Position numbers and translations under genes: made by a program
Part shown: positions 39 to 47,933 of the stretch, one piece after another
Numbering within the stretch: the first letter of the stretch is position 1
Layout: each line of letters starts with the position of its first letter
The notes under the pieces: generated by a model
What the model was told of the DNA's origin: nothing
Database searches by the model: none
The model's input: the letters and a program-made list of their open reading frames with translations, nothing else
DNA from: Eledone cirrhosa
Taxonomy: Eukaryota
Direction: 5' to 3'
Length of the DNA stretch: 64,000 nucleotides
Assembly: GCA_964016885.1 (NCBI GenBank)
Contig: OZ024741.1
Location: forward strand, 347,510,001-347,574,000

Positions 39-2100
39 TTGTCTCTCTCCCTCCCTTCTCTAAATGTGTCTCTCTCCCTCCCTTCTCTTTCGCAAGCGAC
101 GCCAGAAAAGAAAAATCACGTGCAAAGCGAGCAAGATTTCTCCACGACGACAACGACGAAAAAGGTGTGCGGAAAATACGAAAACCCATTTTATTCGTCT
201 GACGTCAGGAATAATAGCAGTAGCAGCCGTAATAACAGCAGCAACAGTGACAAGAAAAACAACAGTAGCAGCCGCAACAGCACCAGCAGCAACATAAACA
301 ACAACAGCATTAGCAGCAACAACAACAGCAGCAGCAGCAACAACATCAACAACCACAGCAACAGCGGCGGCGGCAGTAGTCGTAGTACCTGCAGCAACAA
401 CAAAAGTAACAGCAGCTCTGACGACAACAACAACAACAACAGCAGCAAAGAAAAAACAATCTCGTTTGCAGGTATCGCAAAGAACCTGGAAACCATCCTC
501 ATAACAAATGAGGAATTAGAGGAAGCGAAGAAGATGGTGACAAAAACTGGACACCGAGCAATCTGCAAGGTAGCGGAAACATTTTTCGAAACCCAACAGC
601 ACTGTACGGTCACGTACCGTACAGTAAGTACAAAATCCCGTAGGGTTGAAAGAGCCACAGAGGCTCAAATACAAAAAGCCTTGGGGTATGTGTGGCAGCG
701 GAAAACGCACATCACCCGAGGCAAGAACTATGCCACCGTAGACGTACTTTTTGCCACACCCCAGGAGGCAAAGGCTCAATCCTTAGTGACCTTAAGGAGC
801 GAGGAAATGGTGTTGGTGCCCTGCTACTGCGGGCAAAAAATTGCGAGGGTCAAAATGACCCACGTCCCCCCCGGGATGGCCCCTTCTTGGCTGGCCTCGT
901 CTGTCCTCGTCGGAATCGAGGACAAAACAACTATACTGCAAGTACAGAAAAAACTAAGAGAAGATTGGGTCGGCACCTCCATTGAGATGTTAATCCAAAC
1001 CAACCAGGAGTGAATCGAAGCTATCCCGGATGTGATAGACTTCGATAGCGGCACTCAACTGCCCATAAGTGTTGAGGGCAAACGCCCGAAATGCTTTCGC
1101 TGTGGATCGAAGACTGACCTCAGGGCCTTCTGCAACGAAAAGACCCTGAGAAAGGAGAAAAAAAACACTCCTTCCGAAACCAGATCCACGGCTACCAGCA
1201 ACAGGACAAGCGGCAACCAGGAACGATAGGTCCGTGGCACCCATACCCACGCCAAGGAAATCAAAAACAGCAGCAGCAGTGGAAGTATTAACAACAACAA
1301 CAGCAATACCAAATACAGCTGCAACAGAGACACCAGTGCAAAGATCACCAACAACAACAAGTGAAAGAGTGGAGCTGGTACCCCTCCCCGACCTCACAGA
1401 ATCAGACATGGAGTGTGAGGTGGGAGAGGGGTGGCAAAAGGTCGTAAGAAGGCACAAACGCAGAAGCAGCGCATCGTTGCCTTCGAAAAGGGAGGAAAGA
1501 AATGAAAAATGGGTAAAGGCTACTGCAAAGAGACTCACAGCAGCAACACCACCAACACCATCACCACCCACACTAGCACCACCATCACCACCGGCGACAA
1601 CCCCACCGCCAACAACAATAACACCTTCAACACCACCACCACAACACCAACATCGCAAACACAACAACAAAACACACACACCCAGCAACAACGACAAGAA
1701 AATAGCAGAACCACACCCCACCCCCAGAAAAACAAATGCACGGCAATAAATACACACAACAAGAAACTAATGACTTACATAATTGAACACACAGACATTT
1801 CACAACACGACTACATAATACCAGCACCAATCAAAACGCCAACTAACATAAGACTGCTAAAAATAGCACAGAAACAGTACACAAACACTAAAACGAAATT
1901 CCCCAACGCAGTTGGTGATTTCAGAGAACTAGGAGGGACTCTCAATCGAAGAGTATATTCGGACATACTCATAGAAGAGCCGACGACCAGCCGAAGGGAC
2001 GATTCAACGGTCCCTTCAGCAGACGATCAAGTGAAAAGGGATGGAAAAACCATCCCTCCTCTACGAAAAGTACGGTAAGTGGTCTTTTCCATCTTTTCCA
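39..2100 (+). pseudogene. Tx1 copy 1 ORF1 (gag-like; Asn/Ser-rich N-terminus, zinc knuckle), interrupted
   Basis: ORFs 39-1013 and 1032-1229 are in the same frame, separated by one TGA; knuckle CFRCGSKTDLRAFC; further pieces 1234-1749 and 1509-2078 are frameshifted; homologous to ORF1 of copy 2 (SFAG/TFAG, REDW motifs). Confidence 0.75.
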
Positions 2101-2113
2101 CTCTATTTTAAAC

Positions 2114-5100
2114 ATGACCTCACTCAGAATAGGCAGCATAAATGCGCGTGGCTTGGGGTCGTCATGGATGCAGGGTCACCTGCTCAACGACCTCAGGTCA
2201 CTAAACATAGATGTAGTGGCCATCAGCGAGACAAGAATCTCCGAAGCACAGGCTTTCGCACCGATCTTCGGCGGCTACGATGTGTACGCATCTCCCAGCC
2301 GTCCGGGATCGGGGGGAGGATTTGCTGTGCTTTTTCGGAGAGGTTTGGATCTTGCCATACGGGCCATCTTCCTGGACCCAGAAGGTAAGTTGGTGGTGCT
2401 GGACGTGACCAGCGGAGACGGGCAAGCTTTCAGGTTAGTGGCCGTCTATGCCCCGACAGGAGCAGGGCGGCCTGATTTCTTCCGGCGTCTGGAGACCTTT
2501 CTTGGAACGTCCCGCTCTTTAGTGTTAGTGGGCGACTGGAACGGTATCTTAGATGCACGCTGGCACTGTGTGGGATTAGCGGATAGGGGTGGAGGATGCA
2601 ATAGCCTCACCAACCTGCTCAGGCGTTTTGAACTGTCTGACAGCTACCGATTGGATTTCCCGAATGTGCCAATGTGGACTTGTACAAATCGCATAAGGTC
2701 ATCCAGTTCATATCTAGATAGAGTATTTTGTAGGGAAATCGAAGGTCTAGCATAGGATGTCCACAATTCAAGATAGTCAGCTACACGGACCACAAATTCG
2801 TGATATGTGTGCTTGACTTAGATAGGCTTCATAGACAAGGACCCGGCTACTGGCAGCTAAACGCGTCCTTACCAACATGCAAGGCCTACAGAGACCGGAT
2901 TAGGGAAGTAGTTAAGCGGACGTTGACCGGGGCCATCGTCAACAACAAGTGGTGGTTTGCTCTGAAAAGAGCGATTAGAATAGAATCCATTAGGTTTAGT
3001 AAGGCTTTAGAAATAGAGAAAAATAGAGCAGAGGGAGAATTAGTTAGAAAATTAGACGAGGCGCTTAGCAATCGCATTGCGACCGACGTGCTTGCGGCGA
3101 AATTGGCCCTTGACCAATTCTTCAATGCAAAGCACGAAGGCTGCGTTGTCAGAGTTAGAGTGCGTGCTCTCAGATACGAGTGGACGAAAGCCGTTCAATG
3201 GGCCCGAGTGGCGGAGGCGCGTCGTGGCAACAAAGCCACGATCCGGTCTTTGGTGGACCACGACGGGCACATGCTACTCGATCCCGGGCAAATGTGTGAA
3301 GTTATTCAGCGACACTTCACTCAGCTGTTCGGGGGCAGCGGTGGGCCGGATCGAGGGATGGACTTTAGTGTATACGACGACGGACTGCCGCGGCTCTCGG
3401 CCACTGAGGCGGAGTGTTGCGAAAAGCCGATAAGGGAGGCAATGACTGACTGCACAAGGGGAAAATCGCCTGGTTTCGATGGTCTGCCCTATGAACATTA
3501 CGTACAAATGCCAGACATGTTCGGAGGCCTCTTGGCGGACGTCTACTGCAACTGGCAACAGAACGGGAGAATTCCCAGCTCTGTGAGCCGAGGAGGGGTG
3601 GCGCTGCTGAGAAAGGATCCGAACAAGGGGGATAACTTAGATCATTTTAGGCCCATAACTCTGCTAATCACAGAGTTCAAGATTTTGGCCAAGGTGCTAG
3701 CAAAGAGATTGGCGCTTGTCGTTGGTGGTCTGATGGGAGAGGAACATACATGCGCCATTCCTGACAGATCCATCCACGACAACCTCCACCTCATGCGATA
3801 CATCGTAGAGAGGGTAGCTAGGGAACCTGGCACGGGTGGGTCTTTGATCAATTTAGATCAGTCGAAAGCCTTCGATAGGGTCGACCATCGTTACCTAGCC
3901 GCAGTCCTGAGGGCGGCTGGATTTGGGCCCGTCTTCGGAGGCTGGATCGCTGTCATGCGCAGCGACATCTGCTATGTAGTGAGAGTAAACAGTGACCTTT
4001 CGGAACCGTTCAACATCATGCGTTCGGTCCGCCAAGGATGTCCCCTCTCGTCCCTATTGTACGTATTGACTCTCCTGCCATTACTGCACAAACCGGAGAC
4101 GTTGAGGGTCGTCCCGCGTGAACTAGGATGCGGAAGATCCGTGTCAGCTTTGCGGACGATTTCACCGTAGTGGTGTCGAACGCCAAACACATCGAGGCGA
4201 TCGTCATTACACTAAGTGAATACGAAGCGGTGACAGGAGTAATGATCAACCAGGAAATGTCAGTGGGCCTGCAGCTCGGCACCTGGAGAGGCAGGTCCAT
4301 GCCGTTCAACAGCGTCGTCGGGCGCTGGACGGACGGACCGGTTAAATTGCTAGGCGTCTGGTTCGGTCCGCATCTCCAGACGGACAAAATCTGGAAAGAG
4401 GTGACGAGCAGGGCGGCTTCTATCACCCAGAAATGGGCGCAGAGGAAGCTATCCCTGAAAGGTCGAGCGGAGGTGGCTAACGCGTTCATCGCGTCCGTCA
4501 TCTACTACCGCCTGACCGTCGTACCTCGTCCTAAGCCCCGCCTAACTGCGTTGAAGCGTTTGCTCTTTCGCTTTTTGTGGAAGGAACGCGCTCCGATGGT
4601 CAGGCCGTCCATCTGCTGTCAACACCCGCTACGTGGAGGGCTTGGCTTGCCGTGGCTGATGATGCGCAGATACGCGCTCAGTAAAGACATCTCCACCTCT
4701 TCCACGGCGGTGATCAGGTATGGTCGCCGTTTGTTAGACACGTCTTTCCCCAGCTCGTCTCCTTGACGGAGCTGCAGTCCTGGGTCAAGCGAAGACCGAG
4801 AGGGAGCGCTTGGAGACTGGAATGTCTTCAGGCGCTCACAGCCCTCGACCAATCGGGCAATATGAACGGTGGAAACTCCACCTTGGCGTTCTATAGATGA
4901 TTAGTGGAGGGGAAGAGCGACGACGTTCTTGTAGAAACTCTAGGCGTCGACGAAAATCAACTAGCCAATCTCTTCGGAAGGACGTTCGGCCCGGGGCTAG
5001 TACAACTTCCAGAAATCCCTGGCCTGGCAGTGCTTCCGAGGAGCTTTGCCAGTTCGGGATAAACTCTACAGGCATGGAGGTGCCGTCAGCTGGGCATGTC

Positions 5101-5512
5101 CGACAGCGCGCAAGACAACGAAACCGTCATGCACGCACTCGTCCAGTGTCCGGACATTGCTGACTTGTGGGTTTATGTCGAACACCTGCTCTCACGTATA
5201 GGACGGATCCAGCTATCAGCTGAGTCCATCGTGAGGATTTCCCCGCCCTCTTCCTCTAGCCGGGAAGGGCAGGCAGTTTTTATCTGTCTGGTGGCCATGG
5301 CGAAAGAGATAGTATGGTGGACACGTTTGAAAGGGCTGAAGACGAGCACTTACCTTTTCGGTGATGCCCTGATTAACTTTTTCAAATTTCATTTGAAAAG
5401 GAAAATCAGGGTAGAGAGGGAAGTGCTCTCTTCCCAACATTTTGTTGAAAGATGGGTGAGAGAAGCAAGTATGGCCCGAGTGAATGGGCCTACTCTGAGT
5501 ATGTGTCTGTAA
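2114..5512 (+). pseudogene. Tx1 copy 1 ORF2 (APE endonuclease - reverse transcriptase - zinc finger), frameshifted
   Basis: MTSLRIGSINARGL, SETR, VYAP, GDWN, YLDR (APE); KSPGFDGLP, FRPITLL, DQSKAFDRVDH, RQGCPLS, FADD (RT); ETVMHALVQC near the C-terminus; split over ORFs 2114-2755, 2800-4170, 4128-4766, 5096-5512. Confidence 0.92.
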
Positions 5513-5979
5513 ATTAAAGGTGGAAAACTGGGAGAGGGCACTTGCCCTGGTGGTCAGGGTCACTGTGGCCTTTTAATGGGCTTTCTCCACAAATGTGCCT
5601 CGGACTCTACCCCCTATTGGGGAATTTTTCATTGTTATTTTTTTTATTACATCTGTTTTTTTACACGCAGAAATGCCCATTTGTACCGTCCTGTATTGTC
5701 CTGTACTGTCCTTAATGTCTACTTTATGTAAACCCTTGTGGTTAATAAAGAAAGCATTATTATTATTATTATTATTATTGGTTTAAGCGGACGTATTTTG
5801 CTCGCTCACAGTAAATCGCTTTATTTGCATGTTTAAATTATTTGTTGTTAAATATTTCTTGTTGTGTAAAGGATATAAGCCATTAGACTTTGACCCGTGA
5901 AGGGAATGTATAATATTTGGGCCTTTTGGCCCAAATATTTGAACTTTTTTTACATGTTAAAAAATTCACGAAGAAAAAA

Positions 5980-7967: not shown

Positions 7968-7976
7968 CCTGCCAAC

Positions 7977-10900
7977 ATGGCCGTATTAAGAGTAGGATGT
8001 TTAAATGTTCGAGGCCTGGGATCGTCCTGGAAGCAGGGTCACCTGATCAACGACCTCAGGTCTATAGAAATGGACGTAATTGCAGTCAGCGAGACCAGGA
8101 TTTCCGATACGCGCGCACTAGCCCCTATTTTCGACGACTACAGATCTTTACATCTGTTAGCCGGCCGGGAATGGGAGGCGGGGTGGCAGTGCTGTTTAGG
8201 AAAGGCCTGGATCTCGAGGTAAGGTCAATCTTCCGGGACCCGGACGGGAAGTTGGTGGTCCTTGACGTGAACAATAATGAAGGTGGTGCCTTTAGACCGG
8301 TGGCCGTCTATGCTCCTACTGGGGCAGGACGGCCGGTTTCTTTAGACGCCTGGAAGCCTTTCTGGGTACGTCTCGCCCTTTACTGTTAGCGGGGGACTGG
8401 AACGGCATCTTAGACGCAAGCTGGGACTGTGTAGGAGTATTCGGTAGTGCGGGGTGTAAAAGCCTCAAGAACCTGATCAGCCAGTTCCAAGTGTCTGACA
8501 GGTACCGACTAGATTTCCCTAATGCGCCAGTGTGGACCTGGGCTAACCGCATAGAGTCATCTAGATCGTATATAGACAGGATATTCATTAGGAAAATAGA
8601 CAGAAATAGTGTAAGCTGTCCACGTTTTGAAACGGTCGCCTATTCATCTCACAATTTTGTCGATCTAGATAAGACGCTTAGGTTAGGACCTGGTTACTGG
8701 AAGCTAAACATGTCATTTCCGGCACATAAGGCTTACAGGGACCAGTTCAAACTTTTAGTTAAGAAAAAGTTGACAGGGGGAGTCGTCAACAATAGATGGT
8801 CGGGGGCTCTCAAAAGAGAGATTAGAGTAAGTCTATAGAGTTTAGCAAAGAAGTAGCATTAGAGAAAAATAGAAAGGAGGGCGAGTTGGTAGATAAGTTA
8901 GACGAGGCTATTGGTAATGGCATTGCAACTGATGTGCTAGCGGCGAGAATGGCATTAGACCATTTCTTCAATGCGAAACACGAAGGTTGCATTGTCAGAG
9001 CTAAGGCGCGTGCTCTGAGAAACGAGGGAACCAAAGCTGTTCGATGGGCCCGCGTGGCTGAGGCGCAGCGTGGTAATAAAACCACGATTCGGTTTTTGAC
9101 GGACCGAGACGGGCACGAGCTGAACGATTCCAAGAGGATGTGTGAGGCCTTTCGCCAACATTTTGCTCGGTTGTTCGGGGGAAGTGGCGGGTCAGAGATG
9201 GTGGCGGACTTCAGTTCCTACTTCGATGGCCGCAACTCTCGACGGCTGACGCTGGGCGCGGCGAAAGACCAATTACTTCAGCCGAGATTCAGGATGCCCT
9301 TGTAGGATGCATGAGGCGCAAGTCACCCGGTTTGGATGGTCTGCCCTACGAGCTTTACGTAAATATGCCCGACTTGTTCTCCAATCTCCTCGAAGCCCTC
9401 TACTGCAACTGGCAGCAAAACGGGAGTATTCCCAGTTCTGTGAGCCGGGGCGTAGTGACGCTGATAAGGAAAGACGAGAACAAGAGGTACACATTAGACA
9501 ATTTCAGGCCCATAACTCTGCTCAACACAGAGTTTAAGATTTTGGCCAGGGTGTAAGCGAAGAGGTTGTCGCTTGTCGTCGGGTATTTGGTTGGGGAGGC
9601 GCAAACTTGCGCAATCCCAACCAGGTCTATACACGACAACCTCCATCTAATACGATACATCATAGAGAGGGTAGGGTGTAAACCTGGGGCTCTGATCAAT
9701 TTAGATCAATCGAAAGCATTCGATAGAGTCGACCATCGGTACCTGGATCCTGTCCTCAAGGCGGCTGTCTTCGGTCCCGTCTTCAGAAGCAGGATCGCTG
9801 CAATACACAGCGGCACCTGATCGATGGTCAAAATTAATGGCCACCTCTCGGAACCGTTTCAGGCTCCCGATCGGTCTGTCAAGGGTGCCTTCTCTCCTCT
9901 CTTCTGTACGTATTGACTCTCGAGCCTTTACTGCGGAAGCTGGAGCTGTTGCAGGGCATCCCGCTCGAACAGGGACGCGGAAAGGCCGTGTCGGCTTATG
10001 CGGACGACATCACCGTGATGGTGTCGGACACCTCAGAAATCGAGGTTGTCGGCAACTTATTGGAGGAATATGAAAGGTTGACGGGAGCAAAACTTAACCC
10101 GGAAAAGACAGTAGGCTTGCAACTCGGCACCTGGAGAGGCAAGTCCATGCCGTCCAACAGCGTCATTAGGCGCCGGACGGACGGACCGGTAAAGTTGCTA
10201 GGGGTTTGGTTCGGGCCAGACCTACAGGTGGATAAGAATTGGGACGAGGTGACGGGCAGGGTAGTCAGTCTCACCCAGAAATGGGCTGGGATGAAGCTAT
10301 CACTGAAAGGTCGGGCGGAGGTGGCGAACGCGTACATCGCGTCCGTCATCTACTACCGTCTGACTGTCGCTCCCTGCCCCCGTCCGCGCCTCGCCATCTT
10401 GGAGCGGCTCCTCTTCAAGTTCTTGTGGAGGGGTCAGGTTCCGCTGGAGAGGCGGTCCATCTTCTGCCAGCACCCTCTACGGGGAGGGCTGGGCATGCCG
10501 TGGCTAATGATGCGCAGGCACGCGCTGAAGCTGCGGCACCTCCAGATATTCTGCCTAAACGGTGAACAGGTGTGGTCGCCGTTTGTCGGATGGGCTTTTC
10601 CGCAGCTCGTTTCTTTGACTGAGTTGCAGTCGTGGGTCAAGAAGAGACCGAGAATGGGTGACCGGCATCTGGAATGGTGCCAGGCACTCACTGCCCTCTA
10701 CCAGGCGGGCAATGCGGTCAGTGGAACTTCCCCCAAGCGAGTTCTATAGAGGATTAGTGGTGGGCAACTGCGACGACGCATTCGGAGAGGCTCTGGGAGT
10801 CAACGAAGTCGAACTAACCAGTCTGTACCGGAGGACTTTCGAACCGGGGACGATGGATAATTTCGGGGGGCACTGCCGGTTCTAGATAAACTCTACAGGC

Positions 10901-11338
10901 ATGGAAGTGCTGTCAGACGGACCTGCCCGAGATGCGTGCAGAGCGACGAAACCGTTCTACACGCACTCGTCCAGTGTCCGTGCATTACTGACTTGTGGAG
11001 TTACGTTGAACAGCTGTTGTCACGTGTAGAACGGATCCGGATATCGTGAAGTCCATAGTGAAGATCGACCCACCGCCTTCTTTTGGCCAGGAAGGGCAGG
11101 CAATTTTCCTCTGTCTGGTGGCAGTAGCGAAAGAGGTTGTATGGTGGACGAGGTTGAAAGGACTGAAGACAGACACTTTTCTCTTCGGCCAGTCCCTCAT
11201 CAACTTTTTGAAGTTTCACTTGGGAAGGAAGGTGAGTGTGGAGAGAGAAGTGCTGCCCCCCAGTACATTTGCTGAAGGTGGGTGAATGTGGCGAGAATGG
11301 CCCATGTGAGTGGGCCTACTCTGGTCATGCGGCTGTAG
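7977..11338 (+). pseudogene. Tx1 copy 2 ORF2 (APE-RT-zinc finger), multiply disrupted
   Basis: MAVLRVGCLNVRGL, SETR, KSPGLDGLP, NFRPITLLNTEFKILA, DQSKAFDRVDH, AYADDIT; many stops and frameshifts. Confidence 0.92.
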
Positions 11339-12580: not shown

Positions 12581-12738
12581 ATAATAATTGTTTCTACTTT
12601 TGGCACTAGCCCAGCAATTAACCAGTACATTACTGGTACTTTATTTTATCGACCCTGTAAGGATGAAAGGCAAAGTTGACCTCGGCGGGATTTGAACTCA
12701 GAATGGAAAGGGCCGTAATTCGATACTGCCAATCCACC
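12581..12738 (-). mobile_element. tRNA-SINE family 1 copy
   Basis: Reverse complement of the B box (gggatttgaactc) and the conserved body tactggtactttattttatcgacc...gatgaaaggcaaagttgacctcggc. Confidence 0.85.
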
Positions 12739-12827
12739 TCCCTGTATATAATAATAATGGTTCCTACTAAATCTATGCCTTCTGTTTGAGTTAGGAAGCA
12801 GGACATTATAATATTATTACTTGCAGA

Positions 12828-12967
12828 GTTACGGCTCTTTATGGTCTGAGTTCAAATCCCGCCAAGGTTAACTTTGCCTTTCATCCTTACGGGGTCAATA
12901 AAATAAAGCACCAGTAATACACTGGGATAATTGCTGGCCTCGTGCTAAAAGTAGAAACAATTATTAC
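12828..12967 (+). mobile_element. tRNA-SINE family 1 copy (5' truncated)
   Basis: gagttcaaatcccgcc B box, conserved body, gtagaaacaattatt end. Confidence 0.85.
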
Positions 12968-16951: not shown

Positions 16952-16997
<46 letters not shown>

Positions 16998-17151
16998 TGT
17001 TATACTTTGGGAGTGTCATGTTGCCAATAGGAAACACACGCACCAGCTGCTTTCACTTCAATTTATTATATATTTATAAATTTACAAATTTATAAATCTA
17101 TAAATTTCTGGTTGGTTGGTTGGTTCCACAGCCAGATAGTTGTTTATATAT

Positions 17152-17196
17152 AGTCATAGTTATTTCGTCACACACTCTGTGACCTCTTCAGTGACT
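17152..17196 (-). ncRNA. Minimal type I hammerhead ribozyme (family A; stem III mutated)
   Basis: AGUCA-CUGAAGAG-GUCAC(agagugu)GUGAC-GAAA-uaac-UA-UGACU. Confidence 0.7.
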
Positions 17197-17317
17197 GGGG
17201 ATTCATTTCTTTGTTTCTGGTGATTCCTTTCTTTGTTTCTGTGCCTCTCCTTTGCTCTGTCCTACGCCATTTGGCGTAGGACAAAGGAGAGGCACAGAAA
17301 CAAAGAAAGGAATCCCC

Positions 17318-17362
17318 AGTCACTGAAGAGGTCACAGAGTGTGTGACGAAAGAACTATGACT
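17318..17362 (+). ncRNA. Minimal type I hammerhead ribozyme (family A)
   Basis: AGUCA-CUGAAGAG-GUCAC(agagugu)GUGAC-GAAA-gaac-UA-UGACU; stems I and II pair perfectly. Confidence 0.82.
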
Positions 17363-17644
17363 ATATATAAACAACTATCTGGTTGTGGAACCAACCAACC
17401 AACCAGAAATTTATAGATTTATAAATTTGTTAATTTATAAATATATAATAAATTGAAGTGAAAGCAACTGGTGCGTGTGTTTCCTATTGGCAACATGACC
17501 CTCCCAAAATATAACAATATCGGTTTCAACACACAATTTCAGATAAAGAATCTTGCTAAACAAATTCAAAAACGAAATATATATATACAGATATAGTAAT
17601 GTTAATTATTGTGAAGACTAAAATCCGAAGAGGGTTGGATAAGG

Positions 17645-22693: not shown

Positions 22694-22759
<66 letters not shown>

Positions 22760-22760
<1 letters not shown>

Positions 22761-23673
22761 ATAAACATGTCTATAGAATCACCAGATAAAATATATACAA
22801 TTTCCTATCCCAATTAGCATAATTAACCATATAAAAATCGATTAGACCAAGCTATAAGAATAAAGGCTTCTATGAAGAAATCTCCGAAAAATAACCGAAA
22901 GCAGCCCTTCGCGTCGGTTGCGATGGAGTATTTACCGAGTATTTCGACAGCGTGTATAAATCGCTCAGATATACAGTCAACTAAACAGAATTAGGTGTAA
23001 AATAAACAAGGAGAAAAGTGAACATATTTAGTTTCCTCTACCATGGTTTCGTCTGCATTTTAAGATATCCGATAACATTGGACATCTAGAGCACCGGACT
23101 CTTCAGGAAGTTAGCTCAAATTTAGACAATAAATTTTTCAAAGTGATTGCGCCAAGAATACATTAAAAAATGGCTAAGAATCGTGACGTAGCAGCGGTCA
23201 GGTTAGAAATAATGTGATTAGTTGCTTACGGCTGGTGGCCTTTTGCTAGAAAGCGCATCACAATACAGCCAAAATTGTATCTCAACCTAAGGGAGATTAT
23301 TACATATAAAGGTTTACATATATATATATGTGTGTGTGTGTTTTGCAACGGGTCACTTTGTGGCTCAATGAAGAGTTAATAAATTAAATAATCAGAGCTA
23401 TATACCATAAAACATGTCTATAGAATCACCAGATAAAATATATACCATTTCCTCTCCCAATTAGCATAATTAACCATATAGAAGCCTTTATTCATAGAAG
23501 CCTTTATTCTTATAGCTTGGTCTAATTGATTTTTTATATGGTTAATTATGCTAATTGGGAGAGGAAATGGTATATATTTTATCTGGTGATTCTATAGACA
23601 TGTTTTATGATATATAGCTCTGATTATTTAATTTATTTACTCTTCATTTAGCCACAAAGTGACCCGTTGCAAA

Positions 23674-23709
<36 letters not shown>

Positions 23710-23718
23710 GTAAACCTT

Positions 23719-23724
<6 letters not shown>
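22760..23724. mobile_element. Non-coding hammerhead-bearing element (family B): ~647-nt monomer on minus strand joined head-to-head to an inverted partial copy, between (TA)n tracts
   Basis: Direct repeat 22763-22832 / 23410-23480; inverted repeat ~23304-23481 / ~23536-23724; hammerhead at 23035-23110. Confidence 0.75.
23035..23110 (-). ncRNA. Type I hammerhead ribozyme (family B) with long stem II and palindromic stem III
   Basis: cuuc-CUGAAGA-GUC...agaugucc/ggauaucu...GAC-GAAA-CCAUGG-UA-gagg. Confidence 0.75.
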
Positions 23725-30943: not shown

Positions 30944-30948
<5 letters not shown>

Positions 30949-31001
30949 AGTATGTATGTATACGTACATACATATATGTATACAGACGTACAGTAGCATG
31001 C

Positions 31002-31003
<2 letters not shown>
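30944..31003. repeat. Outer left arm of an older fold-back (inverted copy at 39621-39680)
   Basis: 60-bp reverse complement match with one mismatch (tagcatgcat vs atgcatgata). Confidence 0.85.
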
Positions 31004-31061
<58 letters not shown>

Positions 31062-31204
31062 ATACTTTGGGAGGGTCATGTTGCCAATAAGAAACACACG
31101 CACCAGTTGCTTTCACTTCAATTTAATTTAATATATATTTATAAATTTACAAATTTCTGGTTGGTTGGTTGGTTCCACAACCAGATAGTTGTTTATATAT
31201 ATAT

Positions 31205-31249
31205 AGTCATAGTTCTTTCGTCACACACTCTGTGACCTCTTCAGTGACT
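31205..31249 (-). ncRNA. Minimal type I hammerhead ribozyme in left pseudo-LTR
   Basis: Exact reverse complement of 38637-38681. Confidence 0.82.
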
Positions 31250-31546
31250 GGGGATTTCTTTCTTCGTTTCTGTGCCTTTCCTTTCTTCTATCCTACGCCA
31301 TTTTGTTTGTGTGTGGGTTGCGTGCTCAGTTTGCGCATGCGCCACATCCGGGTGTCTGTGTGTGTTTGTGTTCATTTTTCTATTTTTCTATTTATATTTG
31401 TTTGTTTATTTATTTATTTATTGTTGGTTGGTTGTTTGTTCTATGTGTGTGTGTGTTTTCATTTTGTCTTGTGTGTGTTTTCATTTTGTGTGTGTTTTCA
31501 ATTGTAAGTTGTTTGTTCTATGTGTGTGTGTGTTTTCATTTTGTCC

Positions 31547-34500
31547 TTAATTGTAAGTTGTGATGTTGCTGTTCCACTCATATTTTCTATTTAATTTTGG
31601 TTTTAATTCTTTTATGCTTACTGCCTCTGTAATTTGCCTAAACATTGCGTCTTTCTTGTGTGTGGATTCTATTTTTATTTCTATGCTCTCTAATTTACCC
31701 CTGTGTTCTATCTTAGCATGTTGGTAGAGCACAGATGATTCTTTACTATCTTGGAGGTCTCGCCAGTGTTCATTTATTCGTTCCCCTATACTACGAGCTG
31801 TCTCACCTATGTACACTATATTTTTGTTTCTACATTGTCCTTCAGTACATCTTATGCTATATACTACATTTCTAGTTTTACAGTTAATATGGGGGCTTAT
31901 TTTACAGGTTATACATTTCTTATCTATACATGAGGGTCTTTGGAACGGGTATGTCTTGCTAATAAGTGTTTTTACGGAGGTACCAGGTCTTTCTACTATC
32001 TTAATATTGAGATTATGTTTCTTTAGGGCCCTTCTAAATTTGTAGGCTAGTTCGCCTCTAGGGGTTGTATTGATGAACATTACACTCTGGTATTTATTGC
32101 TATCATACCATGAGTTTATTCTATTGGCCTTGTTCTTAGTTCTTTCTATTCTATTCCAAAATTTGCTCCTATACAAGGGGCAGGTCCCATTTATGTCATT
32201 ATTTACCATTTTTTCCCATTTGGTTCTGGCTCCTTTATACACTCTGATTCTATCTCTCTGATTGTAGCCGGAGAACTGCATACGGTGGATAAAGTGTTGT
32301 ATGTGTCTCTCTAGTTCTTCGGGGTTGCACATGCGGGACACATTTCTCATCACCCGTATCAAATCCGCAATCAGTATGTTGATTTTGGTATGGTCCGAAA
32401 TGGCCGAGTTTCGGTGGATCAGATGTTTGGAAGTCATGGGTTTGGCATAATGGGAATGGAGGATTTGTTTTTGGTTGTTAATAGTATCTAACCAGAGCTC
32501 TGTGTCTAGTACAGGTAATCGATGGTTGGTGTGTCTACTTGGGTATTCTATAGTAACTCTAATGCTCTGGTGGATGGAGTTTGCTATTTGCTGGATGCTT
32601 TCCATTGTGTTTTTCTCTGGTTCCTGACTGTTCTTTAGTGGGGGTGTCTTAACTACGATGTTTATATCATCTACGTAGCGGGAGTACATTATCAGGGTTA
32701 AGCTGTCTTCTAATTGTTCTTTAAGTTTTTGTTTAAGTCTACTGTCCCACCATACCATGAACAAGTTAGCTATGTCGCCTGCAATGCTAACACCAATGGC
32801 TGCTCCTTCCTCTTGGGCATATGTTTTACCATTAAATTTGAACATATGTTCCTTAAGGGTTAATTTTATGCTGGCCCCTACCGCATGTGCAATCATTTTC
32901 TTCAGTTCATCGTGGTTTTCGGGTGTCCGTATGGCTCTGGTCCACCCGTTCCATCTATCTGTGTGGCTTTTCTTGGCCATTGAGGTAATGGTAGGTGGTC
33001 TGCCTCTTGCTGGTCTTGTAGGGCACAGGTTGCTAAGGTCATAAGTGTCTAGGTAACTATTACTATGGGTAAGCTTAAGTAGAAGTCCCAGCTCACTGGT
33101 ATCAATCCCACGGAACTCAACCTTGCTCTCGCTGATCATTTCGACGCATTTCTCCACAGCAAAATCCACGTCAATAGATGGATACAGGGACACAACATCC
33201 ATACTGCCTATTATGCAGTTTGTTAGGTCCCCAGATCGGTTACCCGCGCCGATTCTGCTGAGGAGGTCCTCCGTGCTGTCACACACATCTGGGGACATCT
33301 CAATGATGGGGCGTATGATCAGGGAGAGGAAGTAGGACAGTCTGTAGTTACTAGCAATGTTAGCCCCACAGACTGGCCGTGTTGGTGGTCCCGCGGCAGG
33401 GTCCCAGCCCGTTTTATGGTCTTTTCGAAGCCCATACAACGCCGGCACGTCATTGTTCCAGGCCTGGAAGTTGTTGGCAGTCCTTTTGTTGGGCTGCATT
33501 ATATTTGTCCACATCACCATATGGGCATTGAGGGTTTTTTCTCTATCCTCATGCTCCTGTGGTGTTACCTCTCTTGTGTTAGTGATGTGGGGTTGCATTG
33601 CCTGGATGTAGTTTGGCAGGCTGACAACCGACATTCTGCCAGACTTGTCTGTTGGAAAGCATGCTATCTCTCCATTACGCGAGCGCTGCATGAGCTTACG
33701 CAAGCCATTTGCAGATTCTTCTCCCAGTTGCTGGGCCTCTATTCTATTATGCTTCTTGCTATACTGTTCTATAATATTTCTAAGTTCGGATTTAGCTATA
33801 CTAAATTGTGCTTCTGTTTGTTCATCGACCTGCGACGGCAACTGCGTGCGTTTGTTAAATGGCAAAGTCGTGGCGTGGACTCGTCGTAGGTCGAATGATT
33901 TATCGGAGGGGTTATAAAACGGAGAGTTCCAGGCTGCTGCTTTATGTGTACTAGTGCTATTGTTAGTTGTGTTGTTTCTATTTCCACCAACAGCAGCAGC
34001 CTCAGCTTCATGGTTGTTTCTATGTCTCTCATAATTACTCCTGTCTCTTTCCACTGGCTCAATGTTGTTATCTACCCTATTTTGTGTGTCTGTGTGTTCG
34101 TCTTGGTTATTCTCTTTGTCCTTAGTCTCCCTACTCCTTTTAATCCTATTACTTTCTCTTATTTCTCTGATTTCTGTGCTACTGTCATTACTTGTTTTCT
34201 GTGTCTGTGTGTTTGTTAAGATTGTAGTGGTGGTGAGAGGCATTGAATGTGTGTGTGTTGTTGTTGTTGATGTGTGTTGTTGTTGATGTGTGTTGTTGTT
34301 GATGTGTGTTGTTGTCTCCGTGTGTGTGTGTGTTATCGTTGTTGTGTGTGTTGTTATTGTTGTTTGTGTTTGCGTGTCTGTTGTTGTTGTATCTGGGTAT
34401 GTTGCTGTTGTTGTTGTTGTTGATGTGTGTGTTGTTGTTATTGTTGTCTCCGTGTGTGTTGTTATTGTTGTTTGTGTCTGCGTGTCTGTTGTATCTGGGT

Positions 34501-34950
34501 ATGTTGCTATTGTTGGTGTTGTATCTGGGTATGTTGCTATTGTTGTTGTTATTGTTGTTTGTGTCTGTGTGTCTGTTGTTGTTGGGATGTGTGTTGTATA
34601 TGTGTGTGCGTATATTGTTGCTTTTGTTTTTGTTTTTGATGCTCCAGCGTAGTTTCGTAAATGATTTTTCTATTTCTGACAGACAACTAATCATATTTAC
34701 CTTCTTGAATGTCGCAAATTTGGGTGGCAGACGTAACACAGACATTTCATTATTATCTATTTTCGTGTTTCCATAAATGTTGGTATTTTCATTGTTGAAC
34801 TCTTCAGATAATGAGGTGTCGGCCATGTTGATACCGTCAATTTTGTCGGGATATCTATTGGTATACTCTATAGTATCCCGATTTAGCTTTGCCTGTTTAA
34901 GCCACTTTAATTTTCTGTTAAAGTGCTTATTACATTCTTGAGTAATATAC
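31547..34950 (-). pseudogene. Penelope-like RT/GIY-YIG ORF, left arm; frameshifted by a 16-bp repeat indel near 34265-34300
   Basis: Split into ORFs 34188-34979 and 31547-34243 (898 aa, RT and EN intact); mirror coordinates shift by 16 across the Asn-rich repeat. Confidence 0.9.
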
Positions 34951-37900
34951 AGTACATTACTCAAGAATGTAATAAGCACTTTAACAGAAAATTAAAGTGG
35001 CTTAAACAGGCAAAGCTAAATCGGGATACTATAGAGTATACCAATAGATATCCCGACAAAATTGACGGTATCAACATGGCCGACACCTCATTATCTGAAG
35101 AGTTCAACAATGAAAATACCAACATTTATGGAAACACGAAAATAGATAATAATGAAATGTCTGTGTTACGTCTGCCACCCAAATTTGCGACATTCAAGAA
35201 GGTAAATATGATTAGTTGTCTGTCAGAAATAGAAAAATCATTTACGAAACTACGCTGGAGCATCAAAAACAAAAACAAAAGCAACAATATACGCACACAC
35301 ATATACAACACACATCCCAACAACAACAGACACACAGACACAAACAACAATAACAACAACAATAGCAACATACCCAGATACAACACCAACAATAGCAACA
35401 TACCCAGATACAACAGACACGCAGACACAAACAACAATAACAACACACACGGAGACAACAATAACAACAACACACACATCAACAACAACAACAACAGCAA
35501 CATACCCAGATACAACAACAACAGACACGCAAACACAAACAACAATAACAACACACACAACAACGATAACACACACACACACGGAGACAACAACACACAT
35601 CAACAACAACACACATCAACAACAACAACACACACACATTCAATGCCTCTCACCACCACTACAATCTTAACAAACACACAGACACAGAAAACAAGTAATG
35701 ACAGTAGCACAGAAATCAGAGAAATAAGAGAAAGTAATAGGATTAAAAGGAGTAGGGAGACTAAGGACAAAGAGAATAAACAAGACGAACACACAGACAC
35801 ACAAAATAGGGTAGATAACAACATTGAGCCAGTGGAAAGAGACATGAGTAATTATGAGAGACATAGAAACAACCATGAAGCTGAGACTGCTGCTGTTGGT
35901 GGAAATAGAAACAACACAACTAACAATAGCACTAGTACACATAAAGCAGCAGCCTGGAACTCTCCGTTTTATAACCCCTCCGATAAATCATTCGACCTAC
36001 GACGAGTCCACGCCACGACTTTGCCATTTAACAAACGCACGCAGTTGCCGCCGCAGGTCGATGAACAAACAGAAGCACAATTTAGTATAGCTAAATCCGA
36101 ACTTAGAAATATTATAGAACAGTATAGCAAGAAGCATAATAGAATAGAGGCCCAGCAACTGGGAGAAGAATCTGCAAATGGCTTGCGTAAGCTCATGCAG
36201 CGCTCGCGTAATGGAGAGATAGCATGCTTTCCAACAGACAAGTCTGGCAGAATGTCGGTTGACAGCCTGCCAAACTACATCCAAGCAATGCAACCCCACA
36301 TCACTAACACAAGAGAGGTAACACCACAGGAGCATGAGGATAGAGAAAAAACCCTCAATGCCCATATGGTGATGTGGACAAATATAATGCAGCCCAACAA
36401 AAGGACTGCCAACAACTTCCAGGCCTGGAACAATGACGTGCCGGCGTTGTATGGGCTTCGAAAAGACCATAAAACGGGCTGGGACCCTGCCGCGGGACCA
36501 CCAACACGGCCAGTCTGTGGGGCTAACATTGCTAGTAACTACAGACTGTCCTACTTCCTCTCCCTGATCATACGCCCCATCATTGAGATGTCCCCAGATG
36601 TGTGTGACAGCACGGAGGACCTCCTCAGCAGAATCGGCGCGGGTAACCGATCTGGGGACCTAACAAACTGCATAATAGGCAGTATGGATGTTGTGTCCCT
36701 GTATCCATCTATTGACGTGGATTTTGCAGTGGAGAAATGCGTCGAAATGATCAGCGAGAGCAAGGTTGAGTTCCGTGGGATTGATACCAGTGAGCTGGGA
36801 CTTCTACTTAAGCTTACCCATAGTAATAGTTACCTAGACACTTATGACCTTAGCAACCTGTGCCCTACAAGACCAGCAAGAGGCAGACCACCTACCATTA
36901 CCTCAATGGCCAAGAAAAGCCACACAGATAGATGGAACGGGTGGACCAGAGCCATACGGACACCCGAAAACCACGATGAACTGAAGAAAATGATTGCACA
37001 TGCGGTAGGGGCCAGCATAAAATTAACCCTTAAGGAACATATGTTCAAATTTAATGGTAAAACATATGCCCAAGAGGAAGGAGCAGCCATTGGTGTTAGC
37101 ATTGCAGGCGACATAGCTAACTTGTTCATGGTATGGTGGGACAGTAGACTTAAACAAAAACTTAAAGAACAATTAGAAGACAGCTTAACCCTGATAATGT
37201 ACTCCCGCTACGTAGATGATATAAACATCGTAGTTAAGACACCCCCACTAAAGAACAGTCAGGAACCAGAGAAAAACACAATGGAAAGCATCCAGCAAAT
37301 AGCAAACTCCATCCACCAGAGCATTAGAGTTACTATAGACTACCCAAGTAGACACACCAACCATCGATTACCTGTACTAGACACAGAGCTCTGGTTAGAT
37401 ACTATTAACAACCAAAAACAAATCCTCCATTCCCATTATGCCAAACCCATGACTTCCAAACATCTGATCCACCGAAACTCGGCCATTTCGGACCATACCA
37501 AAATCAACATACTGATTGCGGATTTGATACGGGTGATGAGAAATGTGTCCCGCATGTGCAACCCCGAAGAACTAGAGAGACACATACAACACTTCATCCA
37601 CCGTATGCAGTTCTCTGGCTACAATCAGAGAGATAGAATCAGAGTGTATAAAGGAGCCAGAACCAAATGGGAAAAAATGGTAAATAATGACATAAATGGG
37701 ACCTGCCCCTTGTATAGGAGCAAATTTTGGAATAGAATAGAAAGAACTAAGAACAAGGCCAATAGAATAAACTCATGGTATGATAGCAATAAATACCAGA
37801 GTGTAATGTTCATCAATACAACCCCTAGAGGCGAACTAGCCTACAAATTTAGAAGGGCCCTAAAGAAACATAATCTCAATATTAAGATAGTAGAAAGACC

Positions 37901-38339
37901 TGGTACCTCCGTAAAAACACTTATTAGCAAGACATACCCGTTCCAAAGACCCTCATGTATAGATAAGAAATGTATAACCTGTAAAATAAGCCCCCATATT
38001 AACTGTAAAACTAGAAATGTAGTATATAGCATAAGATGTACTGAAGGACAATGTAGAAACAAAAATATAGTGTACATAGGTGAGACAGCTCGTAGTATAG
38101 GGGAACGAATAAATGAACACTGGCGAGACCTCCAAGATAGTAAAGAATCATCTGTGCTCTACCAACATGCTAAGATAGAACACAGGGGTAAATTAGAGAG
38201 CATAGAAATAAAAATAGAATCCACACACAAGAAAGACGCAATGTTTAGGCAAATTACAGAGGCAGTAAGCATAAAAGAATTAAAACCAAAATTAAATAGA
38301 AAATATGAGTGGAACAGCAACATCACAACTTACAATTAA
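34923..38339 (+). CDS. Penelope-like polyprotein (reverse transcriptase + C-terminal GIY-YIG endonuclease), open but 5'-truncated at the palindrome axis
   Basis: 1138-codon open frame (first ATG 35076): PTDKSG, LYGLRKDHK, RPVCG, SMDVVSLYPSI, GAAIG, RYVDD, LPVLD; Cys linker CIDKKCITC..C; VVYSIRC..C..YIGET..RINEH..QH..H..E..LN. The called GTG start lies in the opposite arm and is not a real start. Confidence 0.93.
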   Translation: MLITFLSNIQYITQECNKHFNRKLKWLKQAKLNRDTIEYTNRYPDKIDGINMADTSLSEEFNNENTNIYGNTKIDNNEMSVLRLPPKFATFKKVNMISCLSEIEKSFTKLRWSIKNKNKSNNIRTHIYNTHPNNNRHTDTNNNNNNNSNIPRYNTNNSNIPRYNRHADTNNNNNTHGDNNNNNTHINNNNNSNIPRYNNNRHANTNNNNNTHNNDNTHTHGDNNTHQQQHTSTTTTHTHSMPLTTTTILTNTQTQKTSNDSSTEIREIRESNRIKRSRETKDKENKQDEHTDTQNRVDNNIEPVERDMSNYERHRNNHEAETAAVGGNRNNTTNNSTSTHKAAAWNSPFYNPSDKSFDLRRVHATTLPFNKRTQLPPQVDEQTEAQFSIAKSELRNIIEQYSKKHNRIEAQQLGEESANGLRKLMQRSRNGEIACFPTDKSGRMSVDSLPNYIQAMQPHITNTREVTPQEHEDREKTLNAHMVMWTNIMQPNKRTANNFQAWNNDVPALYGLRKDHKTGWDPAAGPPTRPVCGANIASNYRLSYFLSLIIRPIIEMSPDVCDSTEDLLSRIGAGNRSGDLTNCIIGSMDVVSLYPSIDVDFAVEKCVEMISESKVEFRGIDTSELGLLLKLTHSNSYLDTYDLSNLCPTRPARGRPPTITSMAKKSHTDRWNGWTRAIRTPENHDELKKMIAHAVGASIKLTLKEHMFKFNGKTYAQEEGAAIGVSIAGDIANLFMVWWDSRLKQKLKEQLEDSLTLIMYSRYVDDINIVVKTPPLKNSQEPEKNTMESIQQIANSIHQSIRVTIDYPSRHTNHRLPVLDTELWLDTINNQKQILHSHYAKPMTSKHLIHRNSAISDHTKINILIADLIRVMRNVSRMCNPEELERHIQHFIHRMQFSGYNQRDRIRVYKGARTKWEKMVNNDINGTCPLYRSKFWNRIERTKNKANRINSWYDSNKYQSVMFINTTPRGELAYKFRRALKKHNLNIKIVERPGTSVKTLISKTYPFQRPSCIDKKCITCKISPHINCKTRNVVYSIRCTEGQCRNKNIVYIGETARSIGERINEHWRDLQDSKESSVLYQHAKIEHRGKLESIEIKIESTHKKDAMFRQITEAVSIKELKPKLNRKYEWNSNITTYN

Positions 38340-38636
38340 GGACAAAATGAAAACACACACACACATAGAACAAACAACTTACAATTGAAAACACACACAA
38401 AATGAAAACACACACAAGACAAAATGAAAACACACACACACATAGAACAAACAACCAACCAACAATAAATAAATAAATAAACAAACAAATATAAATAGAA
38501 AAATAGAAAAATGAACACAAACACACACAGACACCCGGATGTGGCGCATGCGCAAACTGAGCACGCAACCCACACACAAACAAAATGGCGTAGGATAGAA
38601 GAAAGGAAAGGCACAGAAACGAAGAAAGAAATCCCC

Positions 38637-38681
38637 AGTCACTGAAGAGGTCACAGAGTGTGTGACGAAAGAACTATGACT
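38637..38681 (+). ncRNA. Minimal type I hammerhead ribozyme in right pseudo-LTR
   Basis: AGUCA-CUGAAGAG-GUCAC(agagugu)GUGAC-GAAA-gaac-UA^UGACU; predicted cleavage after 38676. Confidence 0.85.
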
Positions 38682-38884
38682 ATATATATATAAACAACTA
38701 TCTGGTTGTGGAACCAACCAACCAACCAGAAATTTGTAAATTTATAAATATATATTAAATTAAATTGAAGTGAAAGCAACTGGTGCGTGTGTTTCTTATT
38801 GGCAACATGACCCTCCCAAAGTATAACAATATCGGTCTCAACACACGATTTCAGATAAAGAATCTTGCTAAACAAATTCAGAAA

Positions 38885-38944
<60 letters not shown>

Positions 38945-38951
<7 letters not shown>

Positions 38952-39565
38952 TATATACACATATGCATACAGGTACACATACATATATGCACGCATCAGT
39001 TTAGCCGACGTTTATTATAACGCCTGCTTTGTTCGTTTGTTTGTCAACAAATCGAACAGCCTGAATTTATGCCATACGGTGTTAAGGCAACCACGTCACC
39101 TTTTTGTTCAACACTGACACAGGAACGATGTACTAGTTTCAAGCTTGTTAGCTATCATCAGCACCGTTTACCCATCTGCCAGATAGTTGAACGTTCGAAA
39201 GTATATACTTTACTTATGAAAATTAACAGCTGAGCAGCCTAATTTGCATATTGAGTGAGTTAAATCGGTCTGGCATACCGAAAACGATAAGTTGAAAAAA
39301 ATGAAAACGAAATTTCACTTTCGAACGTTCAACTATCTGGCAGATGGGTAAACGGTGCTGATGATAGCTAACAAGCTTGAAACTAGTACATCGTTCCTGT
39401 GTCAGTGTTGAACAAAAAGGTGACGTGGTTGCCTTGACACCGTATGGCATAAATTCAGGCTGTTCGATTTGTTGACAAACAAACGAACAAAGCAGGCGTT
39501 ATAATAAACGTCGGCTAAACTGATGCGTGCATATATGTATGTGTACCTGTATGCATATGTGTATA

Positions 39566-39625
<60 letters not shown>

Positions 39626-39680
39626 TGATACTGTACGTCTGTATACATATATGTATGTACGTATACATACATACTTACAT
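38945..39680. repeat. Older fold-back: inner arms ~38945-39202 / 39317-39575, 114-bp spacer, (TA)n, outer right arm 39621-39680
   Basis: ~258-bp arms are reverse complements with one difference seen (gttaagg vs ccttgac). Confidence 0.9.
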
Positions 39681-40024
39681 TTAAGTAAGTGCCATACTAA
39701 GAGTGAGAAATGAAATTTCGTTTTCATTTTTTTCAACTTATATATATATGCATACATATATATATATATAAATACATCAATATCTCTCTCAATATCTCCC
39801 CACACGTACACAATTAAGTGCTGAATGTATAAATATGTTAATTAATATTAAGTATCGTGAGTACAAAAAATTCTTTCAAAATACGCTTTCTAATGATATA
39901 AACATCTAAATTCCTGTCATAATTTATTTGGTTTCTCCGATAAGACGAAGAAACTGAAAAAGTTCGATGGTGATAGATATAATCTACTAATCCTGAAAGT
40001 AGAAGCATAGAATAATATAAATAA

Positions 40025-46745: not shown

Positions 46746-46758
46746 ATTATTATTATTA

Positions 46759-47933
46759 TCTGCTGTAAACACCCGCTACGTGGAGGGCTGGGCATGCCGT
46801 GGCTAATGATGCGCAGTCTTGCGCTCAGAGTACAACATCTCAACATCTTCCTCGACGCTGATCAGGTGTGGTCTCCGTTTGCTAGACGCGTATTTCCCCA
46901 GCTCATCTCCTTGACGGAGCTGCAGTCATGGGTCAAGCGAAGACCGAGAGGGAGCGCTTCGAGCCTAGAATGTCTTCAGGCACTCACAGCCCTCGGCCAA
47001 TCGGGCAATGTGATCGGTGGAAACCTCACCTTGACGTTCTATAGCGGGTTAGTGGAGGGGAAGAGCGACGACGTACTTGGGGAAACTCTAGGCGTCGACG
47101 AAACTAAACTAGCCAATCTCTTTGAGTGAAATTTCGGGCCCGGGCCTATGGACAACTTCCAGAAGTCCCTGGCCTAGCATTGCTACCGAGGAGATTTGCG
47201 AGTTCCGGATAAACTCTACAGGAATGGAGGTGCCGTCAGCTGGGCCTGTCCGAGATGCGCGCAGGGCGACGAAACCATCCTGCACGTACTCGTCCAGTGT
47301 CCGAGCATTGCTGGCTTGTAGATTTATGTCGAACACCTGCGGTCGCGTGTAGAATCGATCCGACTATCAGCTGAGTCCATCGTTAGGATTGCCCCGCCCT
47401 CTTCCTTTAGCCGGGAAGGACAGGCAGTTTTTATCTGCCTGGCGGCCATGGCGAAAGAGATTGTATGGTGGACACGTCTAAAAGGGCTGAAGACGAGCAA
47501 TTACCTCTTCGGTGATGCCCTGATTAACTTTTTCCAATTTAATTTGAAACGGAAAATCAGGGTAGAGGGGGAGGTGCTCTCTTCCTAGCTTTTTGTTGAA
47601 AGATGGGTGAGCGAGGCAAGAATGGCCCGAGTGAGTGGACCTACTCTGTGTATATGCCTGTAAATTGAAGGTGGAAAACTGGGAGAGGACAATTACCCTG
47701 GCGGCCAGGGACACCGTGGCTTTTTTTAATGGGCTTTCACCACGATGGCCCTCGGAAGTTTCCCCCTATTGGGGAATTTTTCATTGTTCTATTATCATAT
47801 CCTCTATTTTTTTTCTTTTTTACACGCAGAAATGCCCATTTGTACCGTCCTGTATTGAACTGTAATGTCCTTAATGTATACTTTATGTAAACCCTTGTGT
47901 TTAATAAAGAAAGCAATATTATTATTATTATTA
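46759..47933 (+). mobile_element. 5'-truncated Tx1-like copy A (copy-1 subfamily) with (TTA)n tail
   Basis: Aligns with ~4611-5779; GMPWLMMR.., VWWTRLKGLKT. Confidence 0.9.

Follow-up and report, generated by a model that had tools for sequence, protein, structure and literature searches.

Head-to-head terminal repeats of a Penelope-like element in Eledone cirrhosa and their possible origin from two joined cDNAs

Insertions of Penelope-like elements (PLEs) have been described that carry an inverted, 5'-truncated copy next to their 5' end and a tail of 30-40 bp, which is often one-sided (PMC8557442). Inverted repeats and short extensions also serve as features for PLE curation (PMC8969392), and (TA)n targets have been linked to the presence of a CX2-5CxxC linker (PMC8557442). 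Palindromes at inverted junctions were noted and read as the result of self-priming (PMC3846280). For a Poseidon PLE it was found in vitro that both target strands are cleaved and extended, that two internal start sites of reverse transcription bound the tail, and that these start sites are not homologous to the cut DNA; a dimer was predicted (PMC11167929). The formation of tandem and inverted structures has been called unexplained (PMC8557442), and the steps after initiation were left unvalidated (PMC11167929). Both the layout and the self-priming idea are already published for PLEs, and the structure described here is ordinary for this group. Its value is the evidence that it provides on an open mechanism.

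The miniature palindrome and its large relative

The analyzed window is a stretch of 64,000 nucleotides from Eledone cirrhosa, and the coordinates of its features are collected in Table 1. The 579 bases at 16996-17574 form an inverted pair with a tail, and it is nearly certain that this pair is the terminal repeat (pseudo-LTR) of a PLE, present twice and head-to-head. The inverted, 5'-truncated copy adjoins at the 5' end, and the tail is one-sided. The initial annotation had stated that this miniature palindrome shares both termini with a much larger one (together called family A). This was indeed the case: the start motif of the left end was found at 16996 and at 31056, respectively, and the 54-nt unpaired tail is present in both copies. 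Base 16995 is a C, and the large element has a T at this position. As described before, both ends of the miniature copy are embedded in (TA)n, a sequence type that makes up 2.6% of the window as (TA)5 or longer; a target-site duplication is unreadable within TA runs. The axis is nearly spacer-free, as had also been noted, and the loop has the sequence TT. With the large element as reference, the two loop bases extend the left arm's reading of the element, and base 17272 is common to both arms, i.e., the arms overlap by 1 nt at the axis. The fold point lies about 250 nt inside the element, in contrast to 3.9 kb in the large copy, and the arms are 87-90% identical to both ends of the large palindrome. 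The miniature copy is without coding capacity, and it either depended on an autonomous copy for its mobilisation or is a truncated derivative of one.

The two miniature arms pair at 241 of 247 aligned bases, i.e., they differ by six substitutions. The arms of the large element differ by ten substitutions in 3877 aligned bases and by one 16-nt gap. The miniature arms are thus more diverged, as had been claimed, and the miniature copy is the older one. An indel of about 21 bp had been annotated in addition to the substitutions. It turned out to consist of two parts, namely a tandem duplication of 22 nt in the left arm and, apart from it, a difference of 5 nt at 17255-17259, where five nucleotides retained by the left arm and by the large element are missing from the right arm. 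Twelve sites join the two miniature arms against both arms of the large element, indicating that one template from another subfamily gave rise to both. With the large copy taken as outgroup, the left arm has four private substitutions in addition to the 22-nt duplication, and the right arm has two private substitutions in addition to the 5-nt loss (an alternative count by columns gave six and three private differences, the excess being alignment noise beside gaps). From the distribution of these variants, separate decay of the two arms after a common origin was shown. The common variants together with private mutations in each arm also confirmed, at the level of sequence comparison, that the miniature palindrome is an older, independent, non-coding insertion and not an artefact.

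All ten substitutions of the large arms are located within the middle 1.8 kb (35780-37616), and the inner 0.8 kb and the outer 1.2 kb contain none. This clustering is due either to chance or to gene conversion. Repetitive sequences of other types were also observed in the window. At 12582-12966, an abundant short repeat forms an older inverted pair, and further copies of this repeat are found at about 11633, 21935, 29063, 40080, 41573, 44950 and 46000. LINE-like elements with an AP-type endonuclease and an RT (Pfam) are present at 1919-5770, 7974-11337 and 46758-49418, the last of which is a partial tandem of 3' ends.

Table 1. Features of the miniature palindrome, the large element and the family B and C palindromes
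Feature	Position	Strand	Remarks
Left (TA)n target run	16954..16994	.	41 nt
Left arm, without tail	16996..17269	-	274 nt; inverted PLE pseudo-LTR, ending at site 1
Minimal hammerhead motif, left arm	17152..17196	-	predicted with own descriptor; private helix III substitution at 17162
Tandem duplication	17205..17226	.	22 nt; left arm alone, not in right arm or either large-element arm
Axis loop TT	17270..17271	.	2 nt
Right arm	17272..17518	+	247 nt; direct pseudo-LTR copy
Minimal type I hammerhead motif, right arm	17318..17362	+	predicted with own descriptor; predicted cut after 17357
ATG-opened frame spanning repeat end and tail	17495..17575	+	27 codons
Unpaired tail, site 1 to site 2	17521..17574	+	54 nt
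Right (TA)n target run	17577..17587	.	11 nt; read from the sequence
Family C palindrome	22758..23721	.	both ends in (TA)n
Family C long arm			723 nt; more than one tandem unit
Family C hammerhead, in long arm	23035-23110	-	predicted
Family C short arm			241 nt; includes 54-nt spacer
Family B palindrome	30944..39739	.	layout as family A, unrelated sequence; left-arm TA run occupied by the large element
Large head-to-head PLE insertion	31054..38886	.	both ends as in the miniature copy; tail 38833-38886
Large-element hammerhead motifs	31205-31249 and 38637-38681		predicted; one in each arm
Parent-family ORF, 5'-truncated	34950..38339	+	RT, CX4CxxC linker, C-terminal GIY-YIG-type endonuclease with CCHH
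Family B hammerhead-like cores	39358 (+) and 39161 (-)		unusual U-U closing pair
Family B spacer	39203-39316		114 nt
Family B tail, right end	39681-39739		59 nt

Coding and ribozyme features of the parent family

The large palindrome contains one ORF twice, in diverging orientation. Full-length relatives extend about 130 N-terminal residues past the axis, and thus both copies are 5'-truncated. The motifs of a PLE-type RT, i.e., DKSG, motif A, motif B and YVDD, are present in this order. The Pfam model RVT_1 matched the trimmed region with an E value of 2.6e-4, which is below the curated cut-off, and a Pfam search with the whole ORF yielded nothing at E 0.01. The Pfam GIY-YIG model gave no score on the protein, and the GIY-YIG and CCHH motifs at residues 1038-1091 were recognized by eye in comparison with Figure S2 of PMC8557442. 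A search of the PDB resulted in weak RT matches only and no telomerase. The best relative was a protein of Octopus vulgaris (68%), a species for which 31 recently active PLE families have been listed (PMC13282606), and canonical PLE-like proteins (P0111-P0116) were distant matches. By its motifs, the parent is an endonuclease-bearing PLE. A tblastn search with 113 relatives revealed no other piece of a PLE ORF in the window.

The CX4CxxC linker at residues 1016-1024 conforms to the CX2-5CxxC linker of Nematis and Neptune, and the linker pattern was found somewhere in 95 of the 114 relatives. About 70 extra residues are present between the RT motifs A and B (36684-37090, ORF residues 593-728), at the place where the insertion-in-fingers domain of telomerase lies. 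The distance between the two motifs is 128 residues; it is at least 120 residues in 103 of the 109 relatives that could be parsed (114 examined) and 47-58 residues in six distant matches. Canonical PLEs, i.e., those with a C-terminal endonuclease, have been described as devoid of an insertion-in-fingers between motifs A and B (PMC8557442), and a search of the literature for such an insert in canonical PLEs retrieved no further paper. Because Nematis and Neptune are defined by the absence of this insertion, the parent was filed under neither clade. Membership in Naiad/Chlamys was rejected, as the endonuclease is C-terminal and a hammerhead is predicted. The Hydra clade was also rejected, as CCHH, DKSG and CX4CxxC are present instead of DKT, CxCX5C and a missing CCHH.

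Three side observations concern this ORF and its relatives. First, its N-terminal part contains an in-frame stretch of about 230 residues that is rich in Asn and Thr (35265-35960, 67 Asn); the 16-nt gap of the left copy lies in this stretch and shifts its frame. Second, the first approximately 150 residues of an Octopus vulgaris protein annotated as "dynein regulatory complex subunit 6-like" (P0106) are 79% identical to the RT of this PLE, which represents either an exonisation or an error of the gene model. Third, a scan of prokaryotic contigs detected a relative with 34% identity (L001:38-2292) in a bacterial metagenome-assembled genome, where it lies on a contig of 2.7 kb. The contig lacks usable ends and is likely a eukaryotic carry-over.

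The end of the repeat and the tail likely contain the start of the PLE ORF (27 codons), as judged from comparisons of the putative peptide. When the peptides were anchored at the N-termini of four close full-length relatives, which had been inspected beforehand, the score was reached by 22 of 3000 shuffles for the large and by 9 of 3000 shuffles for the miniature copy. With further anchored sets this was the case for 2 of 300 shuffles (34 proteins) and 12 of 1000 shuffles (27 proteins), and the two tail peptides took ranks 1 and 2 among the 784 ATG-started peptides of the window. The best score of an unanchored alignment with 114 relatives was matched by 16 of 100 shuffles, and a database search with the 41-residue frame gave no match at E 10. 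The two tails differ by two silent and two replacement codon changes, one of the silent changes being private to one arm, and these numbers are too small to indicate constraint. The reading agrees with the placement of the repeat in A. vaga Pen2a, where repeat and tail span the first 22 codons (PMC3846280), and in D. virilis, where a 34-bp repeat is located at the ORF start (PMC2377424). If it is correct, a tandem transcript would contain both priming sites shortly after the start of the ORF.

A hammerhead search was performed with our own descriptor, the core pattern of which was taken from general knowledge. Motifs were predicted in all four family A arms; the window contained five matches, compared to none in 100 shuffles. 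The motif in the right miniature arm has a helix I of 5 bp, an extra base ahead of helix II and a helix III region of 4 nt. Helices I and II appear in the predicted fold, and the folding energy was no better than that of shuffled sequences. An Rfam scan of the window had no hammerhead family among its 73 matches at E values up to 1. The predicted motif would provide the hammerhead that is characteristic of PLE pseudo-LTRs. Another such motif is located at 53375, in a direct partial tandem at 53110-53571 (151 nt identical, 311-nt period). It ends rightward in (TA)n and represents a fourth ribozyme-bearing family, which is non-palindromic.

Further palindromes and the origin of the two arms

Two additional palindromes in the window are unrelated to family A in sequence or differ from it in arm length. 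The family B palindrome is embedded in (TA)n on both sides and has no tail at its left end. Its left arm resumes past the large element and matches the right arm, in which the TA run is unbroken, i.e., the empty site is preserved. The inner arms match at 254 of 257 bases. On the strand of the tail-less arm, the first bases of the spacer repeat the tail end, and about 85 nt found nowhere else follow; the spacer continues like a tandem unit, a reading that is based on one copy. The tandem unit of family C has a length of about 650 nt, and its predicted hammerhead has a long helix II region and a palindromic loop 3. A long inverted arm is combined with a short direct arm, and a 15-nt duplication is found at the axis, a retrozyme-like arrangement. 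With the extra unit of the long arm as reference, the spacer reads as short arm, and at diagnostic sites the short arm corresponds to the near-axis unit, not to the terminal unit. The mobilization of families B and C may depend on other PLE families and start from circular RNA.

The initial annotation had regarded fixed ends with a variable fold point as a product of the integration mechanism. This is well founded, and the layout has already been described for PLEs. The equal length of the arms was likewise seen in both family A copies, but it is not universal, as the unequal arms of family C show. With two assumed length models, independent stops of two cDNAs would make both of two copies symmetric within 10 nt with a probability of about 1e-4 to 2e-5, a value uncorrected for the preselection of palindromes by the initial annotation. 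The symmetry thus needs an explanation.

We regard the chances as roughly even that the head-to-head repeat pair arose in one insertion from two target-primed cDNAs that were joined end to end. The enzyme of the element would nick both strands of the (TA)n run. Reverse transcription would be initiated at two positions of the RNA separated by 54 nt; the cutting and extension of both strands and the two internal start sites that delimit the tail are adopted from the Poseidon PLE in vitro (PMC11167929). The first cDNA would originate from the upstream site, and the cDNA that starts downstream would then displace it. Both would stop near one 5' point of the RNA, so that the fold point would be the place where the RNA or the RT ends. 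The 3' ends of the cDNAs would anneal via 1-9 nt, or the RT would jump from end to end, and each cDNA would copy the other. The displacement, the common stop and the joining are steps that we infer here. End-to-end template jumping by RTs is a known precedent. In L1 twin priming both target strands prime as well, and the cDNA ends are joined by microhomology; however, the L1 segments do not overlap, whereas both arms described here copy one sequence. A cluster of sites in the 3' UTR at 38535-38590 (and 31296-31351) resembles ETS, NRF1 and YY1 motifs. The miniature copy folds inside the YY1-like site, and thus its axis may mark the start of a transcript from a repeat promoter. A literature search for a double-priming model of PLE integration found none; subscription literature outside the reach of the search may contain one.

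The formation by snap-back, which had been proposed in the annotation, is a possibility that we would sooner doubt than accept. The cDNA primed at the tail end would stop, fold back and copy itself, the endonuclease would cut the hairpin at site 1, and this end would be joined to the target, leaving the tail unpaired. The near-perfect symmetry of both family A copies fits this scheme. At the large axis, a 9-nt imperfect palindrome is present, which is the signature that was used for the proposal of self-priming at palindromic junctions in 2013 (PMC3846280), and the closest relative (P0117) favors the tail-bearing arm as the longer one. In addition, the tail has been ascribed to resolution by the endonuclease (PMC8557442), and the antisense strand of site 1 contains ATT, the motif that was cut most frequently in PMC11167929.

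The two explanations differ in their predictions for the axis. The strand that snaps back has to be the tail-bearing one, because the other is devoid of the tail, and thus unpaired axis bases are predicted to read as the tail arm. However, the axis bases belong to the tail-less arm in the miniature copy (2 nt), in family B (114 nt) and in family C (54 nt), and snap-back would need non-templated additions or extra template switches at these three loci. The polarity is therefore against plain snap-back in three of the four palindromes, in one of them by 2 nt, and the large element fits both models. This observation, which may be new, stems from four insertions in one window, and it favors two joined target-primed cDNAs. 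The two axis bases of the miniature copy could also be non-templated or represent a subfamily difference, as the reference is about 90% identical. Furthermore, the last 12 nt at the two family A axes are not predicted to form a hairpin, while two identical 12-nt ends of the large axis pair as a dimer with -4.2 kcal/mol. Both ends of the tail are start sites of reverse transcription in vitro (PMC11167929), which also argues against snap-back.

The annotation had further proposed that two ATAT-like sites in the element pair with the TA target. One half of this proposal was borne out: site 1 of family A ends in ATAT within the element, and the RNA sequence that follows site 2 is not represented in the window. 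At both family B sites the overlap with the TA target is 2-3 nt. A match between the 54-nt offset and a stagger of the target nicks was also considered, as the empty run of family B has 50 nt and the runs around the large element have 53 and 59 nt. This idea was dropped in view of the instability of TA runs and of the run lengths at the miniature copy, i.e., 41 and 11 nt.

It is improbable that the miniature copy is the remnant of a larger palindrome after a central deletion, in which case its fold point would be uninformative on integration. The miniature copy is older than the large one, and long palindromes are generally unstable. However, deletions that stabilize palindromes usually leave a larger, asymmetric spacer, whereas the 2-nt loop continues the element's own sequence and the arms overlap by one base. 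Moreover, opposed ribozyme pairs at distances of 100-700 bp have been reported for PLEs of S. mansoni (PMC4209133).

An artefact of the assembly or the library, i.e., fold-back chimeric reads, can be dismissed almost completely; amplification and long-read libraries are known to yield palindromes without a spacer, but the substitutions and indels are polarized to both arms, and neither tail nor flanks are mirrored. The annotation had used the miniature copy as the best argument against an artefact. It does argue in this direction, yet the stronger argument is the nested position of the large element, which splits one family B arm that resumes beyond it and matches the unbroken arm with the empty site. 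Kilobase-scale perfect palindromes in such assemblies can thus be real insertions. Equally remote is a MITE-like DNA transposon or a microRNA hairpin gene, for which a long inverted repeat in TA could be mistaken and to which the scores of Rfam microRNA models at the axis would point: all these matches are below the gathering score, the sequence corresponds over its entire length to a retroelement 3' end, and the symmetry of the ends is broken by the one-sided 54-nt tail. Short PLE palindromes can be mistaken for MITEs or microRNA hairpins.

As a generalization, we tentatively propose, with slightly less than even confidence, that in PLE integration two cDNAs are target-primed on a single RNA and fused 3' to 3', and that the parent may represent an unnamed lineage with a C-terminal endonuclease and an insert that corresponds in size and position to the telomerase-like insertion-in-fingers. 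If true, a single step, double priming with fusion, would account for the tail at one end, the inverted copy and the lack of a spacer at the axis, and double priming would be legible in genomes from the arm that owns the axis bases. A genome rich in young, spacer-free PLE palindromes would offer an inexpensive test of self-priming versus double priming.

Comparison with known systems

The closest described systems are the canonical EN+ PLEs (PMC8557442), including Penelope of D. virilis (PMC2377424) and Pen2a of A. vaga (PMC3846280). As in family A, the copies are head-to-head with a one-sided tail, a palindrome is found at the junction, the targets are (TA)n, the repeat contains a hammerhead motif and the ORF has an Asn-rich insert. 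Their repeat and tail extend over the first codons, which is the reading proposed here for family A. N-rich inserts like the Asn-rich stretch found here have been reported for A. vaga PLEs. Differences concern the tail, which has 54 nt here compared to 30-40 bp in PMC8557442, and the arms, which are almost equal and have no ORF body between them, whereas the published inverted copies vary in size. Nematis and Neptune share with the parent the C-terminal endonuclease with CCHH and the CX2-5CxxC linker, and the spacing of seven residues after CxxC equals that in the Nematis rows of Figure S2 of PMC8557442; the insert of approximately 70 residues in the RT, between motifs A and B, sets the parent apart from both.

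Non-LTR retrozymes (PMC7229834; bioRxiv 10.64898/2026.07.22.740005) are short, non-coding, hammerhead-bearing and derived from PLE repeats, like the miniature copy, and families B and C fit this description. The assignment of the miniature copy itself to the retrozymes was rejected, as head-to-tail tandem units, each with a type I hammerhead, are required and it is an inverted pair homologous to an autonomous family. The Cercyon PLEs of S. mansoni (PMC4209133) contain opposed minimal hammerheads 100-700 bp apart, compared to about 120 nt here, and their hammerheads have the same extra base ahead of helix II. In the available part of that source the pairs are given without ends, axes or a mechanism.

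The Poseidon element PAc of Anolis (PMC11167929) resembles family A in its AT-rich target. In PAc, two start sites of reverse transcription bound a tail inside the start of the ORF, and both strands are cut and extended, as is proposed here for family A. PAc belongs to another clade, and its start sites are located 111-118 nt inside the ORF, compared to about 26 and 80 nt for the putative sites here. They are not homologous to the target, in contrast to the ATAT overlap at site 1 of family A, and the available text of PMC11167929 contains no account of inverted copies such as those described here.
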